This document shows, in pieces, positions 3,390 through 23,302 of a stretch of 64,000 bases of DNA; within the stretch, counting starts at the first letter, position 1, and each line of letters opens with the position of its first letter. Source of the stretch: a bacterium. GTDB taxonomy: Bacteria > Patescibacteriota > Minisyncoccia > UBA6257 > JAGOQP01. A model generated the notes under the pieces. The model worked only from the letters and a program-made list of their open reading frames with translations. It had not been told where the DNA came from and searched no databases. The DNA is taken from the NCBI GenBank assembly GCA_021812345.1, contig JAKANP010000001.1:54979-118978 (forward strand), read 5' to 3'. Made by a program: the position numbers and the translations under genes.

Positions 3390-4103
3390 ATGTCTAATTT
3401 ACCATCAAATCAAAAAGTGGTCGTTGTCATGGGACCGCCCGGTTCGGGAAAAGGAACTCAAGCAAATCTTATAGCCGGGAAACTTAATCTTTACCATCTT
3501 GATACGGGAAAGTTTCTTGAGGAATTAGTCCATGACCCAAAACTTCAAAACAACCCGGAGGTTCAAAAGGAAAGAGAAAATTTTGACGGAGGAATTTTGG
3601 TAAGCCCAATTTTCTTTTTAAAATGGGTTACTGAAAAAATAAATGAATTATACAAAAATGGCGAAGGAATAATTTTCAGCGGATCGCCCAGGACTATGCT
3701 TGAAGGTTTTGGGGACGAGGGTCATAAGGGGCTTATGGATGTGTTGGAGCAAGATTATGGAAGAGAAAATATACTCATCTTTCTTCTTCAAATTCCTGAC
3801 GAGGAATCAATAAGAAGAAACAGTTCGAGATTGATTTGTTCGGTTTGCGGCAATGCGATGATAAGCGCTCTTAATTTGAATTTGCCTCAATGCCCGGTTT
3901 GTGGAGGAGCGTTTAGGAAAAGAACGCTGGACAAGTCGGATGTTATAAAAGTTCGTTTGGAAGAATATAGAAACAGAACATTTCCGGTTGTTGCGGAATT
4001 GGAAAAACGCGGGTTTGTGGTTAATAGAATCGACGGCACTCCGATGCCGTATAAAGTTTTTGAGAACATCACTTCAATTATCAATGATATTTTTAAAAAG
4101 TAA
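3390..4103 (+). CDS. adk: adenylate kinase with Cys4 zinc-lid
   Basis: GPPGSGKGTQ P-loop. LID with CSVCG...CPVCGG. Confidence 0.9.
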   Translation: MSNLPSNQKVVVVMGPPGSGKGTQANLIAGKLNLYHLDTGKFLEELVHDPKLQNNPEVQKERENFDGGILVSPIFFLKWVTEKINELYKNGEGIIFSGSPRTMLEGFGDEGHKGLMDVLEQDYGRENILIFLLQIPDEESIRRNSSRLICSVCGNAMISALNLNLPQCPVCGGAFRKRTLDKSDVIKVRLEEYRNRTFPVVAELEKRGFVVNRIDGTPMPYKVFENITSIINDIFKK

Positions 4104-12265: not shown

Positions 12266-13528
12266 ATGGAAAATAATAAATTAGTTTTGGAAAAATTATC
12301 TGAAGTTTTTTTTAACCGATTTTTTGAAAATTGGAAAAATATTTCCGTCTCCGACTTTTTGGATTTTTTAAAACCCAAAATAGAACAAGCCATTACTTTT
12401 GATGAATTTAAAAAGCAGATCTCTCTTAAAGAGAAGAGCAATATCAAATTTGGTATCGACCCCACCGGTCCGGATGTTCATTTAGGGCATCTTTTGCCGA
12501 TAATGGTATTAAGGCAGTTTCAGAAAGCCGGTCATCAGATTCATCTTATAATAGGAGATTTTACGGCGACAATTGGCGATCCCAGCGGCAGAAACGACCA
12601 AAGGCCTCCGCTTACCGAAAATCAGGTTAAGATTAATTCCAAAACTTATTTTTCTCAAATCGGAAAATTCATTGATATTAAAAAATCAAAAAAACACAGG
12701 AACTCCAAATGGTTAAACAAGCTTTCTTTTAAAAATATTTTAATAGATTTAAAAAATCTTAATTTTTCGGAAATTATTCAAAGAGAAGATTTTAGAAATA
12801 GGATAAAACAAGGTCATTCTCTAACGATGGCGGAATTATTATACAGTTATGCTCAGGCGATTGATTCGGTTGAAACAAAAGCCGATGTGGAAATCGGCGG
12901 AAGAGATCAACTGTTAAATTTTGCCCATGCTCGGACAATTATGGGCATAAGAGGATTAAAACCGGAAGTTGTTTTAACCACGCCGGTACTCGAAGGAATT
13001 TTTGGAGATGGAAGAAAAATGAGCAAAAGTTTTGGAAATTACATAGCCGTCAGTTCCTCTTCCGAAGATAAATTCGGAAAAATAATGTCCATGCCTGATT
13101 CCGTTTTGACTATGTATTTTAAGGCCTTTACCGATATAAAAGAGTCCGAAATTGGACAACTTGAAAATTTAATCGAATCTAATCCTTTGGAAGCGAAAAA
13201 ACAACTGGCTCAATTTATTGTTTCTATTGAAAAGAAATCATTAAGCGCAGGATTAAAAGAAAGGAAAAAATTTGAGAATAGATTTTCCAAAAAAAATTAT
13301 GATTCCGACATACAGAAGTTGGAATTCAAAGACGGACAATTTTTATTGGAAGTTTTGTCAAATTGCGGCCAATTTAAAAGTAAATCGGAGATATTCAGGC
13401 TTTTTGAACAAAATGCGATTAAAATGGTCAAACCCGAAGAAAGATTTTTCAGCAGAAATGAAATTGCCGTTGAAGGGGTTTATAAAGTCGGAAAGACAAA
13501 ATTTTTCAAACTGGTAATAAAACAATAA
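12266..13528 (+). CDS. tyrS: tyrosyl-tRNA synthetase
   Basis: Class Ic signatures: GIDPTGPDVHLGHL (HIGH), GDFTATIGDPSGR and KMSKS. Length is about 420 aa with a C-terminal S4-like extension. Confidence 0.83.
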   Translation: MENNKLVLEKLSEVFFNRFFENWKNISVSDFLDFLKPKIEQAITFDEFKKQISLKEKSNIKFGIDPTGPDVHLGHLLPIMVLRQFQKAGHQIHLIIGDFTATIGDPSGRNDQRPPLTENQVKINSKTYFSQIGKFIDIKKSKKHRNSKWLNKLSFKNILIDLKNLNFSEIIQREDFRNRIKQGHSLTMAELLYSYAQAIDSVETKADVEIGGRDQLLNFAHARTIMGIRGLKPEVVLTTPVLEGIFGDGRKMSKSFGNYIAVSSSSEDKFGKIMSMPDSVLTMYFKAFTDIKESEIGQLENLIESNPLEAKKQLAQFIVSIEKKSLSAGLKERKKFENRFSKKNYDSDIQKLEFKDGQFLLEVLSNCGQFKSKSEIFRLFEQNAIKMVKPEERFFSRNEIAVEGVYKVGKTKFFKLVIKQ

Positions 13529-13529
13529 A

Positions 13530-14540
13530 ATGAAACTTTCTATTGGAATCGTCGGTCTTCCAAATGTCGGCAAGTCCACTCTTTTTAAAGATTTGACTCA
13601 AAACGATATTTTAATCGCCAATTACCCATTTGCTACAATTGACCCGAATGTAGGCATAGTTCCTGTTCCTGATGAGCGTTTGGATATTTTGGATAAATTG
13701 AGTCATTCAAAGAAAAAAATACCGGCAATAGTTGAATTTTATGACATTGCCGGATTGGTTAAAGGCGCAAACGAAGGACAAGGGCTTGGCAATCAGTTTT
13801 TATCTCACATAAGAGAGACGGACGCCATAGTGCAAGTTGTAAGATGTTTTAACTCCGGAGAAATAATTCACGTTGAGAATACCGTTGACCCAAAAAGAGA
13901 CATAGACATCATAAATACCGAATTGATTTTAAGAGATTTGGACACTGTTGAAAAAAGAATTGGCAAATTGGAAGGGGAAGCTCGAACAGGCGATAAAACA
14001 AAAATAAAAGAACTTGAAATTGTCAGGCATCTTAATAAACAACTTTCTGATAATAAGCCGATTTATTTTTTGGAAAAGGAAATTATAGAAAATCCGTCGG
14101 TCAAATCTTTAAATCTTTTGACGGCAAAGCCTCAAATATTTTTACTTAACGGCAATCAGGAAGATGTCTCGAAAGAACTTGAAGATAAAATAAAAAACGA
14201 ATTAAAATCCGATTATATAATCTCGGATTTGGGAACTGGCCCCGACTTGTCCGTTTTAATTAAAAAAACTTATCAAATTTTGAATTTAATAAGTTTTTTT
14301 ACGACCGGAGAAGACGAAACAAGGGCTTGGACTATTATTAACGGATGGAAAGCGCCTCAAGCGGCCGGAACCATTCATACCGATTTTGAAAATAAATTTA
14401 TCAGAGCGGAGGTGGTTTTTTGGAAAGACCTGGTTGATGCGGGAGGTTGGTCGCAGGCAAAACAAAAAGGCAAGCTCCGTTTAGAAGGAAAAGATTACGC
14501 AATTAAAGACGGAGATGTTATGGTTATCAGGCATGGATAA
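13530..14540 (+). CDS. ychF: ribosome-binding ATPase YchF (Obg-family)
   Basis: SIGIVGLPNVGKSTLF G1 motif. YchF-type coiled-coil insert. C-terminal TGS domain (GWKAPQAAGTIHTDFE). Confidence 0.9.
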   Translation: MKLSIGIVGLPNVGKSTLFKDLTQNDILIANYPFATIDPNVGIVPVPDERLDILDKLSHSKKKIPAIVEFYDIAGLVKGANEGQGLGNQFLSHIRETDAIVQVVRCFNSGEIIHVENTVDPKRDIDIINTELILRDLDTVEKRIGKLEGEARTGDKTKIKELEIVRHLNKQLSDNKPIYFLEKEIIENPSVKSLNLLTAKPQIFLLNGNQEDVSKELEDKIKNELKSDYIISDLGTGPDLSVLIKKTYQILNLISFFTTGEDETRAWTIINGWKAPQAAGTIHTDFENKFIRAEVVFWKDLVDAGGWSQAKQKGKLRLEGKDYAIKDGDVMVIRHG

Positions 14541-21507: not shown

Positions 21508-22416
21508 ATGGTTACTACTTTTTTCAGAATAATCAAATACGGCAAGCAAAATTTTTCAAGAAACGCTTGGCTTTCCACCGCGACTATTGCCATCATGGTT
21601 TTAGCATTATTAGTTTTTATGGGTTTGATAATTTTTAATGTTCTCACCAGAACTGTTATCTCCAGCATTGAAGATAAAATTGATATCAGTGTTTATTTCA
21701 AAACTACTACCGCCGAAGATGATATTTTGAGAATAAAATCGACTTTACAAGGATTGCCCGAAGTAAAAAGCGTCGATTATATTTCCAAAGACGAGGCGCT
21801 GGCTATTTTTAAAGACAAGCACGCTAACGATCAGACAATATCTCAGGCGATTTCGCAATTAACCGATAATCCGCTTTTAGCTTCTTTAAACATCAAAGCA
21901 CGCAACCCGAGCGATTATCAGGCAATTTCCGATTATCTTAACAACGACTCTATCAGTCCGTTTGTTGATAAAGTTTCTTACGCTCAAAATGCCGGCGTGA
22001 TAGACAGATTGAATAAAATAACAACAACCGCTAAGAATGGAGGATTGGGTCTTGCTATAGTTATGTCGTTAATAGCAATGTTGATAACTTTCAACACTAT
22101 TCGTTTGGCTATTTATTCGAACAGAGAAAGCGTAAACATTATGCGTCTTGTCGGTGGTTCCAACTTTTTTATCCGAGGGCCATTTTTGATTGAAGGAATT
22201 TTATATGGAGTAATTTCGGCGATTGTAAGCTTGATTATTTTGGCGCCGATAATTTATTTTGTTTCTCCTTATACCAACGCTGTTATTCCGGAATTAAACT
22301 TGTGGAGTTATTTTGTCGGCAGGTTGCCCGTATTGCTTGTTTATCAACTTTTGTTTGGTATCGGACTTGGAATAATTTCCAGCTTCATCGCTATCGGAAA
22401 GTATTTGAAAAATTAA
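21508..22416 (+). CDS. ftsX: cell division permease FtsX
   Basis: 4-TM FtsX topology with a large periplasmic loop after TM1. Follows ftsE. Confidence 0.85.
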   Translation: MVTTFFRIIKYGKQNFSRNAWLSTATIAIMVLALLVFMGLIIFNVLTRTVISSIEDKIDISVYFKTTTAEDDILRIKSTLQGLPEVKSVDYISKDEALAIFKDKHANDQTISQAISQLTDNPLLASLNIKARNPSDYQAISDYLNNDSISPFVDKVSYAQNAGVIDRLNKITTTAKNGGLGLAIVMSLIAMLITFNTIRLAIYSNRESVNIMRLVGGSNFFIRGPFLIEGILYGVISAIVSLIILAPIIYFVSPYTNAVIPELNLWSYFVGRLPVLLVYQLLFGIGLGIISSFIAIGKYLKN

Positions 22417-22430
22417 TTTTAAAAAAACAA

Positions 22431-22458
22431 AATCGCCTTGAATTAAGGCGATTTTTAG
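22431..22458 (+). terminator. Rho-independent terminator after ftsX
   Basis: aatcgcctt gaatt aaggcgatt followed by TTTTT. Confidence 0.5.
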
Positions 22459-22488
22459 TTTATTTTTATTAAGGACTTTTATATTTAA

Positions 22489-22559
22489 TGGGGGATCGTC
22501 TAATGGTAGGACATGGGCCTTTGAAGCCCAGTATCGGGGTTCGAATCCCTGTCCCCCAG
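22489..22559 (+). tRNA. tRNA-Gln (anticodon UUG)
   Basis: UGGGGGA acceptor pairs with UCCCCCA. D-loop AAUGGUA. Anticodon arm UGGGC-CUUUGAA-GCCCA. T-arm CGGGG-UUCGAAU-CCCUG. Discriminator G. CCA is not encoded. Confidence 0.85.
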
Positions 22560-22561
22560 CA

Positions 22562-22830
22562 AAATAAATACACTCTTGTGGTGTATTTTATTTTGCATGG
22601 GAAGTCCCGAAACTGCTTTCGGGACGTCAGGGATTTTAAACGACGTAGCTTGTTCCGCTCAGCAGAGCGGAACGCGAGTCGGTGCTTAGACCAATTCTAC
22701 TCGACGGAGTAGAATTGAGTCGAAGGAGATTCCCTGCCGCGCCCGTCCGAAACTTTAGTGAAGGAGGGTCCCCCAGCCGATTTTTAAGCGTAAAAATCGC
22801 GTCGGAATGAGTACATTTCCGACGTCGTCC
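22562..22830 (+). ncRNA. Candidate structured RNA of unknown class (six strong hairpins, locally GC-rich)
   Basis: Perfect stems at 22567-22587 (6 bp), 22604-22625 (9 bp), 22652-22672 (8 bp), 22693-22716 (10 bp), 22778-22799 (9 bp) and 22800-22824 (8 bp). No ORF. GC is well above the local background. Confidence 0.3.
22768..22777 (+). repeat. 10-nt direct repeat of the tRNA-Gln(UUG) 3' end (gtcccccagc)
   Basis: Identical 10-mer at 22551-22560 (tRNA 3' end) and 22768-22777. Confidence 0.5.
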
Positions 22831-22948
22831 ACTATCTCTTTATTTTGTGTACAGCAAGCAACTTGGGTCAAAAATTTAAAGAATAGTAAGTTTCTTGTAT
22901 TAATCTTCCATTTGCTGATATACTGAATAAACAATTAAAAAAATATAT

Positions 22949-23074
22949 ATGGGCAAAAGAAACACAAGCACCGGCAGACGCAGGCCGTCAAAATCTCATA
23001 AGACTAAAAAAAGACTGGAGGCAAAGAGACTTATGCTTGAATCAAAGAAAAAGAAACATCTTTCAAAAAAATAA
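22949..23074 (+). CDS. possible small highly basic protein (41 aa)
   Basis: MGKRNTSTGRRRPSKSHKTKKRLEAKRLMLESKKKKHLSKK. Composition resembles a small ribosomal protein or nucleic-acid-binding peptide. It falls below the ORF-track size cutoff. Confidence 0.25.
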   Translation: MGKRNTSTGRRRPSKSHKTKKRLEAKRLMLESKKKKHLSKK

Positions 23075-23302
23075 AATCCGAACAAAAAATCGTCAATCAG
23101 GCGGTTTTTTGTTTCTTCTGTGCTTTGCAAGCTGCAAACGGACGCAGTAAAATAAATTCGTGCAACCGGGGGTCGGGAGATCGTCTTCAATTAATAAATT
23201 AATCGGCAAAATATATGAAAAAAATAAATATCAATAAAATGCGTAAAAAAATACTTTAATTATTAATTTGTAAAAATTTCAAAAATGATTTAATATAAAC
23301 AT

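Follow-up and report, generated by a model that had tools for sequence, protein, structure and literature searches.

A conserved structured RNA family lacking an Rfam entry is well supported by the comparative analysis of a short, hairpin-rich element found directly downstream of the tRNA-Gln(UUG) gene in a 64,000-nucleotide (nt) stretch of a Patescibacteriota genome (contig JAKANP010000001.1, positions 54,979 to 118,978). This stretch is referred to as the window, and coordinates without a locus label are those of the window. We give somewhat better than an even chance to the reading that segment 22596-22777 is a partly rearranged, plus-strand gene for a small structured RNA of about 150-180 nt, with a layout like that of the RtT RNA of Escherichia coli. 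The comparisons show that the predicted RNA has as its 3′ strand a copy of the ~18 nt at the end of the adjacent tRNA, from G57 through the discriminator, and our best guess is that a stable RNA would be matured from the transcript by tRNA-processing enzymes. An earlier note, made from the letters of the window, had described a hairpin-dense non-coding segment at 22551-22940 bounded by a duplication of the tRNA 3′ end, and had proposed that it could be a novel structured RNA, a remnant of serial integrations or a mobile, tRNA-targeting element. The first proposal is now well supported by a family that is backed by covariation and has no match in Rfam.

The tRNA-Gln(UUG) gene, donor of the copied 3′ segment, occupies 22489..22560 on the plus strand (called by ARAGORN; 63.9 bits with Rfam RF00005), with G57 at 22543 and the discriminator G73 at 22559. 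The G+C content was 0.49-0.53 over 22500-22800 compared with 0.32-0.37 in the flanks, and an inverted-repeat search found six perfect-stem hairpins in the structured, GC-rich island, which spans 22596-22824. The plus strand folded with an energy of -101.7 kcal/mol against -75.3 +/- 5.1 for shuffled sequences (z = -5.2), and the minus strand gave z = -6.0. These results confirmed that a hairpin cluster with non-random folding energy lies 3′ of tRNA-Gln(UUG). The interval first assigned to it had to be shortened: the structured part extends to 22824, while 22830-22940 is an AT-rich, promoter-like region of the next small open reading frame (ORF). The repeated 10-mer, GTCCCCCAGC, was found at exactly two sites in the window, 22551-22560 and 22768-22777, and shuffles of the window gave 0.01 matches; the chance estimate made in the earlier note was of the right order of magnitude. 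The duplication is a real copy of the tRNA end, but what was taken as a bounding repeat is the decayed remainder of one that measures 19-39 nt in relatives. A search of 22400-23250 against Rfam 15, at the gathering threshold and at E <= 10, returned the tRNA as the sole match, in agreement with the previously reported lack of signals for transfer-messenger RNA (tmRNA), RNase P RNA and signal recognition particle RNA. ARAGORN and models RF00005 and RF00023 detected no tmRNA and no second tRNA in the region, where only the tRNA-Gln at 22489-22560 was called, and the group I intron model RF00028 had no match at E <= 10, the tRNA-Gln being uninterrupted.

Relatives were fetched via homologues of FtsX, whose gene precedes the tRNA in the AT-rich window (gene order prfB, ftsE, ftsX, terminator, tRNA-Gln(UUG)), then with a sequence pattern, and then with a covariance model, R1, built from the relatives and run with Infernal. 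The FtsX homologues carry the labels Paceibacterota, Wolfebacteria or Parcubacteria, and most of the loci obtained through them were uninformative because conservation downstream of ftsX is limited to the closest relatives. L007, whose FtsX is 95% identical, also carries the element after tRNA-Gln(UUG); there its 3′ end is a 19-nt tRNA 3′ copy, GAATCCCTGTCCCCCAGCA, with a canonical terminator behind it. A related element is found in L009 (FtsX 70% identical) after tRNA-Gln(CUG), whose 3′ part it repeats over its last 26 nt. The motif pattern was run with N7 after CTGCT on viral and metagenome contigs and in an N8 version on genome contigs. The N7 pattern had no match in the viral contigs and matched 19 stretches in the metagenome contigs, nine of which were real and represented seven distinct sequences; the remaining ten, mostly GC-rich and apparently coding, were judged by eye to be chance matches. 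The N8 pattern gave 18 matches, the only real one being L023, which has a 10-base-pair (bp) hairpin 1. Model R1 recovered 11 distinct copies on 10 contigs with scores of 80-156 bits. The window core, 22592-22750, scored 132.6 bits (E = 3e-36), and it was the single copy found in the 64-kb window with the filters off. The contigs that host the family span a G+C content of 0.37 to 0.50 and appear to be of Patescibacteria type. A literature search returned no description of this Patescibacteria family.

Covariation within this set carries the assignment. RNAalifold, applied to nine sequences, predicted 30 pairs, 19 of them with compensatory changes. When a refined structure was scored on the 11-sequence alignment, 94.3% of the cells were paired, compared with 35-46% when the partners were slid, and both sides had changed in 85 cells as opposed to 26 in shuffles. 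The covariation score was 0.713 against 0.08-0.14 for the slid controls, and none of 500 shuffles reached the observed value. Several helices showed compensatory changes above controls, the behaviour of a conserved structured RNA. Single-sequence minimum free energy folds of L039 and L007 gave the same architecture, with z = -6.0 and -5.3, respectively.

From 5′ to 3′, the structure begins with the 5′ closing strand, an unpaired A, hairpin 1 (9 bp, loop CUGC) and GU. These are followed by a strand of 5-6 nt, paired with the beginning of the tRNA copy, and by a linker, which reads UUCGAA, CUCGAA, CGAGAA or AGCGAA in relatives, where it appears to be T-loop-derived, and UUUUAAA in the window. 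Arm 1 consists throughout the family of a co-varying 2-4-bp stem, a GNA/GA internal loop, GC(G)/(C)GC and hairpin 2, the loop of which is usually AGCA or AGUA. After arm 1 come GYG, arm 2 (CCU/AGG and hairpin 3), AGA and the tRNA 3′ copy. The landmarks of the two-armed domain are the GNA/GA internal loop, CGCGAG, CCU/AGG and GAAGGAGA. In L051a, GGUC/GACC replaces CCU/AGG and is fully compensated, and the base of hairpin 3 varies among GAC/GUC, GCU/AGC and GCC/GGC. Type II inserts have GCGAN/NUUGU at this base, with two conserved G.U pairs and a fifth pair that is A-U, G-C or C-G. A kissing interaction of the hairpin 1 loop (CUGCU) with the hairpin 2 loop (AGCAG or AGUAG) is possible; the two are complementary in only seven of the 11 members and do not co-vary. 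The conserved loops, on inspection, fit neither a hammerhead-like nor a k-turn consensus.

The pairing of its ends relates the element to tRNA. Comparison of the members shows a predicted continuous closing stem, formed by the two upstream strands and the tRNA copy, with the topology of an acceptor/T-arm minihelix. The 5′ closing strand and the 3′ copy of the same member pair better than those of mixed members (permutation p = 0.0003), and in L037 the acceptor-like stem has changed with respect to the parent tRNA-Tyr from GCGUCGG/CCGACGC to GCGCUGG/UCGGCGC, a compensated pair. In this fold, the CUGC-loop hairpin would be located where the D and anticodon arms would emerge, and a two-armed three-way-junction domain of ~105 nt where the T-loop would be.

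A search for the element beside tRNA genes in relatives, which the earlier note had suggested, was productive: eight of the 10 contigs have a tRNA gene on the same strand 16-44 nt upstream of the element. Seven isoacceptors are represented, namely Gln-UUG, Gln-CUG, Lys-CUU, Leu-GAG, Tyr-GUA, Asn-GUU (with two tandem copies) and Ser-UGA. Seven copies on six contigs have an exact 19-39-nt repeat of the tRNA 3′ part at their 3′ end; the window copy is degenerate, with 10 nt. The exact repeat begins at T-loop G57 in all intact cases and spans the T-stem 3′ strand, the acceptor 3′ strand and the discriminator before continuing for 1-13 nt (13 nt in L023).

The number of units varies among relatives. 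L051 carries two full copies in tandem after tRNA-Asn (3454-3792, plus strand), not separated by a terminator. The two are identical in spacer and 5′ scaffold (together ~85 nt) and strongly diverged in their inserts (86 and 120 bits). Relics of a second copy are present in the window and in L007, and ~75 nt of the element remain in L013. The tRNA-Gln(UUG) gene of L010 is identical but has no element, and L008 also lacks it; occupied and empty sites thus coexist among relatives. The fragment kept by L007 differs from the relic in the window and resembles the window variant, so the large hairpin differences between the window and L007 may be paralogous rather than orthologous.

The copy in the window is, judged by its parts, a derived and rearranged member of the family. 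All parts are on the plus strand. It is preceded at 22561..22595 by an A-tract, the stem AAAAUAAAUACAC-UCUUGUG-GUGUAUUUUAUUU and a U-tract (inverted repeat I6; hairpin 22561-22593, 85% complementary). This structure looks like a terminator for tRNA-Gln, and it may also belong to the unit because L007, L039 and L045 have a similar hairpin with a CUUGUGG-type loop before the element. The 5′ closing strand, UGGGAA (22598..22603), is acceptor-5′-like and pairs with UCCC/CCCA of the tRNA copy at 22769-22775; in the minimum free energy fold of the window, UGGG pairs with CCCA and encloses the whole element. Hairpin 1 (22604..22625) has a 9-bp stem, GUCCCGAAA/UUUCGGGAC, and the invariant loop CUGC, with both sides changed in seven of its nine pairs and 100% of its cells paired. 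The T-stem-5′-like strand CAGGGA, which together with the linker covers 22628..22640, pairs with UCCCUG at 22731-22736 to form helix 2, which co-varies. Arm 1 of the inserted domain (22641..22681; helices 3, 4 and 5) is made up of a CGAC/GUCG stem, the GNA/GA internal loop, a GC/GC stem, hairpin 2 (22652-22673, 9 bp, loop AGCA) and CGCGAG. All seven modelled pairs of hairpin 2 co-vary, and the arm 1 stem pair at alignment columns 54/119 is seen as AU, CG and GC. Arm 2 (22682..22729; helix 6) contains CUU/AGG in place of the CCU/AGG of relatives, GAC/GUC, hairpin 3 (22692-22717, 11 bp, loop GACG) and the conserved GAAGGAGA.

The rearrangement affects the 3′ part. UUCCCUG at 22730..22736 copies T-loop position 60 together with the T-stem 3′ strand (compare the L007 copy given above), and the tRNA copy stops at 22736, with no continuation into the acceptor 3′ strand. 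Next, at 22737..22767, comes what is left of a second tandem copy with an internal deletion (direct repeats D2 and D7); it forms a small hairpin in the minimum free energy fold. Within this relic, CCGAAACT duplicates the 5′ half of hairpin 1, GAAGGAGG duplicates the GAAGGAGA junction and GAAGGAGGGTCCC duplicates GAAGGAGATTCCC. The second 10-mer (22768..22777), a copy of the tRNA-Gln acceptor 3′ strand plus the discriminator, is on this evidence the acceptor-strand part of the tRNA copy of the second unit. The idea of serial events therefore holds in the sense that 22737-22777 is the relic of a second tandem copy, of which L051 and L007 provide further examples. Two more perfect hairpins, at 22778-22799 (9 bp) and 22800-22824 (8 bp; inverted repeats I13 and I18), and a U-rich stretch to ~22847 follow. 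These hairpins are strain-specific, a canonical terminator occupies the equivalent place in L007, and they are probably the terminator region of the unit.

A protein-coding reading of the element was rejected since no frame is kept open across the 11 relatives; the earlier note had likewise seen no ORF in the segment enclosed by the 10-mers. The plus strand is favoured by conserved G.U pairs in GCGAN/NUUGU and the T-like helix, by an orientation that is always the same with respect to the tRNA, by the position of terminators after the unit and, in L009, by an extended -10 box, TGGTATAAT, located just upstream of the 5′ strand. A practical consequence is that gene callers place spurious ORFs over these elements; public calls covering the tRNA and the element are L009:7273-7596 (107 amino acids, aa) and L003:3981-4103 (40 aa).

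We propose that transcription of the RNA would start at a promoter of its own or read through from the tRNA gene. Its ends would be set by the tRNA maturation enzymes (RNase P, 3′ trimming and CCA addition), a step that we infer because the closing stem mimics the top half of a tRNA, and the inserted domain would be the working part of the molecule. Recombination between the tRNA 3′ end and the downstream copy would expand, contract, delete and homogenise units, which would account for the tandem copies, relics and empty sites in relatives.

Several observations weigh against this proposal. The alignment has 11 members, and eight of them were recovered by a pattern that itself fixes some of the motifs. 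The acceptor-like stem is short or mismatched (3-7 bp) in several members, and mimicry of the elbow or T-loop is doubtful because the linker is poorly conserved and could in several members just lengthen the helix. G.U cells outnumber A.C cells by just 8 to 5 in the main helices, so that pair counts alone are not decisive for the strand. L039 and L045 show no tRNA in the available sequence, though their 3′ end is of the same kind. In the window copy the continuity of the T-like and acceptor-like 3′ strand is lost, and the copy may be decaying, although it may also still be able to fold. Where an exact repeat continues beyond the mature tRNA end, a recent event at the DNA level is indicated, for which recombination or gene conversion is the only explanation that the proposal offers. 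The presence of the same core beside seven different tRNAs is left unexplained by it.

A rival explanation is a miniature non-autonomous integrative DNA element, comparable to a cis-mobilizable element (CIME) or a satellite and inserted in the T-loop by a tyrosine integrase acting in trans. The direct repeat would then be the core of an attachment (att) site and the hairpins would be protein-binding or DNA-level structures. With its start at T-loop G57 and its extension through the tRNA 3′ end and beyond, the repeat is like that of T-loop-class att sites, and the locally matching repeats at seven different tRNAs, the presence or absence of the element, the tandem double occupancy and the conserved GAAGGAGA right at the junction would all fit. 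However, there was no integrase or other recombinase in or near the copies examined: ORFs of 90 aa or longer were listed for the 4 kb on either side of seven copies, 18 of them were scanned against Pfam, and neither these nor the precomputed Pfam labels of L007 and L009 included a recombinase. The N7 pattern found nothing in viral contigs, and the unit measures only ~175-220 bp from repeat to repeat. The copies are not independent deletion remnants because all share the same boundaries. An att site predicts a T-stem-5′-like arm 7 nt from the T-stem 3′ arm, and here the distance is ~105 nt. In addition, an att scar does not predict six helices that co-vary with G.U pairs or two upstream strands that track the tRNA copy. 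We consider this explanation unlikely, though the most serious of the rivals, and the integrase scar or mobile tRNA-targeting element of the earlier note has not been borne out.

There is also a bolder idea. The family, with RtT as a distant analogue, could consist of self-propagating RNA genes that hitch-hike on tRNAs, with two short strands of an otherwise conserved scaffold re-matched to the local tRNA 3′ end; this pairing would direct insertion or copying at G57 by host enzymes alone, or the RNAs would be isoacceptor-specific acceptor-stem decoys against readers of tRNA 3′ ends. We regard it as speculative and give it little credence.

Debris, a leader RNA and chance are all unlikely. According to the first, the element is a set of pseudogene fragments from a partial tandem tRNA duplication, non-functional and kept by chance and local recombination. 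The rearranged window copy and the decayed fragments in L013 and L007 are what it would predict, and close relatives without the element show that it is dispensable. Against this stand the same ~150-nt core kept beside seven tRNAs in contigs with a G+C content from 0.37 to 0.50, the 19 pairs with compensatory changes, the invariant loops and junctions, and the two diverged paralogues maintained in tandem in L051, which leave debris very improbable. Still harder to sustain, and in our view scarcely credible, is the idea that the element controls the basic 41-aa ORF at 22949-23074 as a cis-regulatory leader (riboswitch or T-box-like): the element does lie upstream of this same-strand ORF and does contain a sequestered Shine-Dalgarno-like AGGAG, but the downstream genes differ at every locus, the terminators come after the element, AGGAG is not followed by a start codon, and the ORF has its own promoter-like region and is present without the element in L008.

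This very basic ORF, MGKRNTSTGRRRPSKSHKTKKRLEAKRLMLESKKKKHLSKK, is on the plus strand and has no Pfam match. The ORF and its promoter-like upstream region are conserved in L007 and L008, and it is taken to be independent of the RNA element because L008 has it with no element adjacent. A parallel exists in E. coli, where the RtT unit contains tpr, a small basic protamine-like ORF; the two proteins are dissimilar.

Other features were observed in the neighbourhoods of relatives. Directly after the family member in L039, at 13510-13650 on the minus strand, another, distinct tRNA 3′ fragment is interrupted in the T-loop. It consists of GGGAUUCGAA, an unrelated insert of ~85 nt, GGAAUCCCUG, a 12-nt hairpin and CCACCCUCUCCGCCA with an encoded CCA, and its layout suggests that the same design may be used by other insert types. 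Convergent to the two tRNA-like elements, L039:12069-13437 encodes a reverse transcriptase of the type found in diversity-generating retroelements (DGRs; RVT_1, E = 3e-23) and bAvd. No link of the DGR genes to the element is claimed because this is a single case. A LAGLIDADG-type homing-endonuclease-like ORF (L036:2403-3116, minus strand) lies immediately upstream of the element-bearing tRNA-Leu. In L014, a 23S_rRNA_IVP (four-helix-bundle) gene is located between ftsE and ftsX (2115-2456), and the near-identical L013 locus lacks it.

In the E. coli tyrT operon, RtT RNA has gone unexplained since the late 1970s. RtT (rttR; RF00391), found in tyrT-tyrV, is the closest analogue that we identified; it shares the layout of the family and not the sequence. 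In E. coli K-12 (L054), four RtT units were detected downstream of tyrT-tyrV, with 133-138 bits against RF00391. Like the family, they lie directly 3′ of a tRNA on the same strand. The last 19 nt of each RtT unit, AAUCCUUCCCCCACCACCA, repeat the tRNA 3′ part from within the T-loop onwards, just as the family copies start at G57, and the position at which the T-loop is split agrees within one or two nucleotides. The units hold AAGGUUCGA, the T-stem 5′ strand plus T-loop of tRNA-Tyr, followed by a GC-rich insert of ~65 nt. Their 5′ strand GGGGAAGGA is complementary to the tRNA copy and would form the stem GGGGAAGGA/UCCUUCCCC, and the annotated rttR RNA ends at the CCA of the tRNA copy. RtT units are 130-180 nt long, tandem and absent from some strains, and tandem copies and empty sites are also seen in the family. 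The tyrT locus of E. coli SK1144 (L053) has two tRNA-Tyr genes 33 nt apart and no RtT units, and the difference from K-12 means that units have been gained or lost between E. coli strains. Homology was rejected: R1 gave only ~8 bits on the E. coli units, and RF00391 at E <= 10 (gathering score 45 bits) had no match in 22400-23250 of the window, L039 or L051. A 13-mer shared by L051 and E. coli, GAAGCGCGCAGCG, was treated as a coincidence because the positions are not equivalent. Unlike RtT, the Patescibacteria family has hairpin 1, an insert of another, two-armed kind, and one 5′ strand each for the acceptor-like and the T-like part. Its genes have neither an encoded CCA nor a tpr-like ORF, and it accompanies at least seven tRNA species, whereas RtT accompanies only tRNA-Tyr. 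The function of RtT is given in the literature as unknown or possibly tied to the stringent response.

What is new would then be the Patescibacteria RNA family, and what was already known a poorly understood RtT-type design. An unrelated family with this layout turns an isolated oddity into a recurring design that can be compared across phyla. It defines an RNA with a ~150-nt fold, six covariation-supported helices and invariant loops, and, because Patescibacteria genomes are small, a non-coding RNA retained in them is worth explaining. It also poses an evolutionary question, that of the origin and re-targeting of units at a fixed T-loop position with no encoded recombinase.

Three other kinds of system resemble the family in part. 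In the att sites of tRNA-targeting integrative elements that belong to the T-loop sublocation (after Williams 2002), the tRNA 3′ part is directly repeated from the T-loop to beyond the gene end. The repeat from the T-loop and the tRNA left intact on the upstream side are common to both, and the family differs in the lack of an integrase, a unit of ~0.2 kb, the lack of a complete distal T-arm-like core and an interior that behaves as a conserved structured RNA. The tRNA-like domain of tmRNA, viral tRNA-like structures and YrlA likewise have paired ends that imitate the acceptor/T-arm half, with a non-tRNA domain attached. In the family, by contrast, the T-loop is not intact, there is no tag frame and the strand is literally copied from the adjacent tRNA; ARAGORN and Rfam found no tmRNA or YrlA in the region. 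The group I introns described in Patescibacteria tRNA genes (PMC13011429) match group I models and are inserted into functional tRNAs at anticodon-loop position 35/36, whereas the family lies outside an intact tRNA, places ~105 nt at the position equivalent to the T-loop and has no group I match. Both are extra, tRNA-associated structured RNAs of the same phylum that standard annotation has missed.

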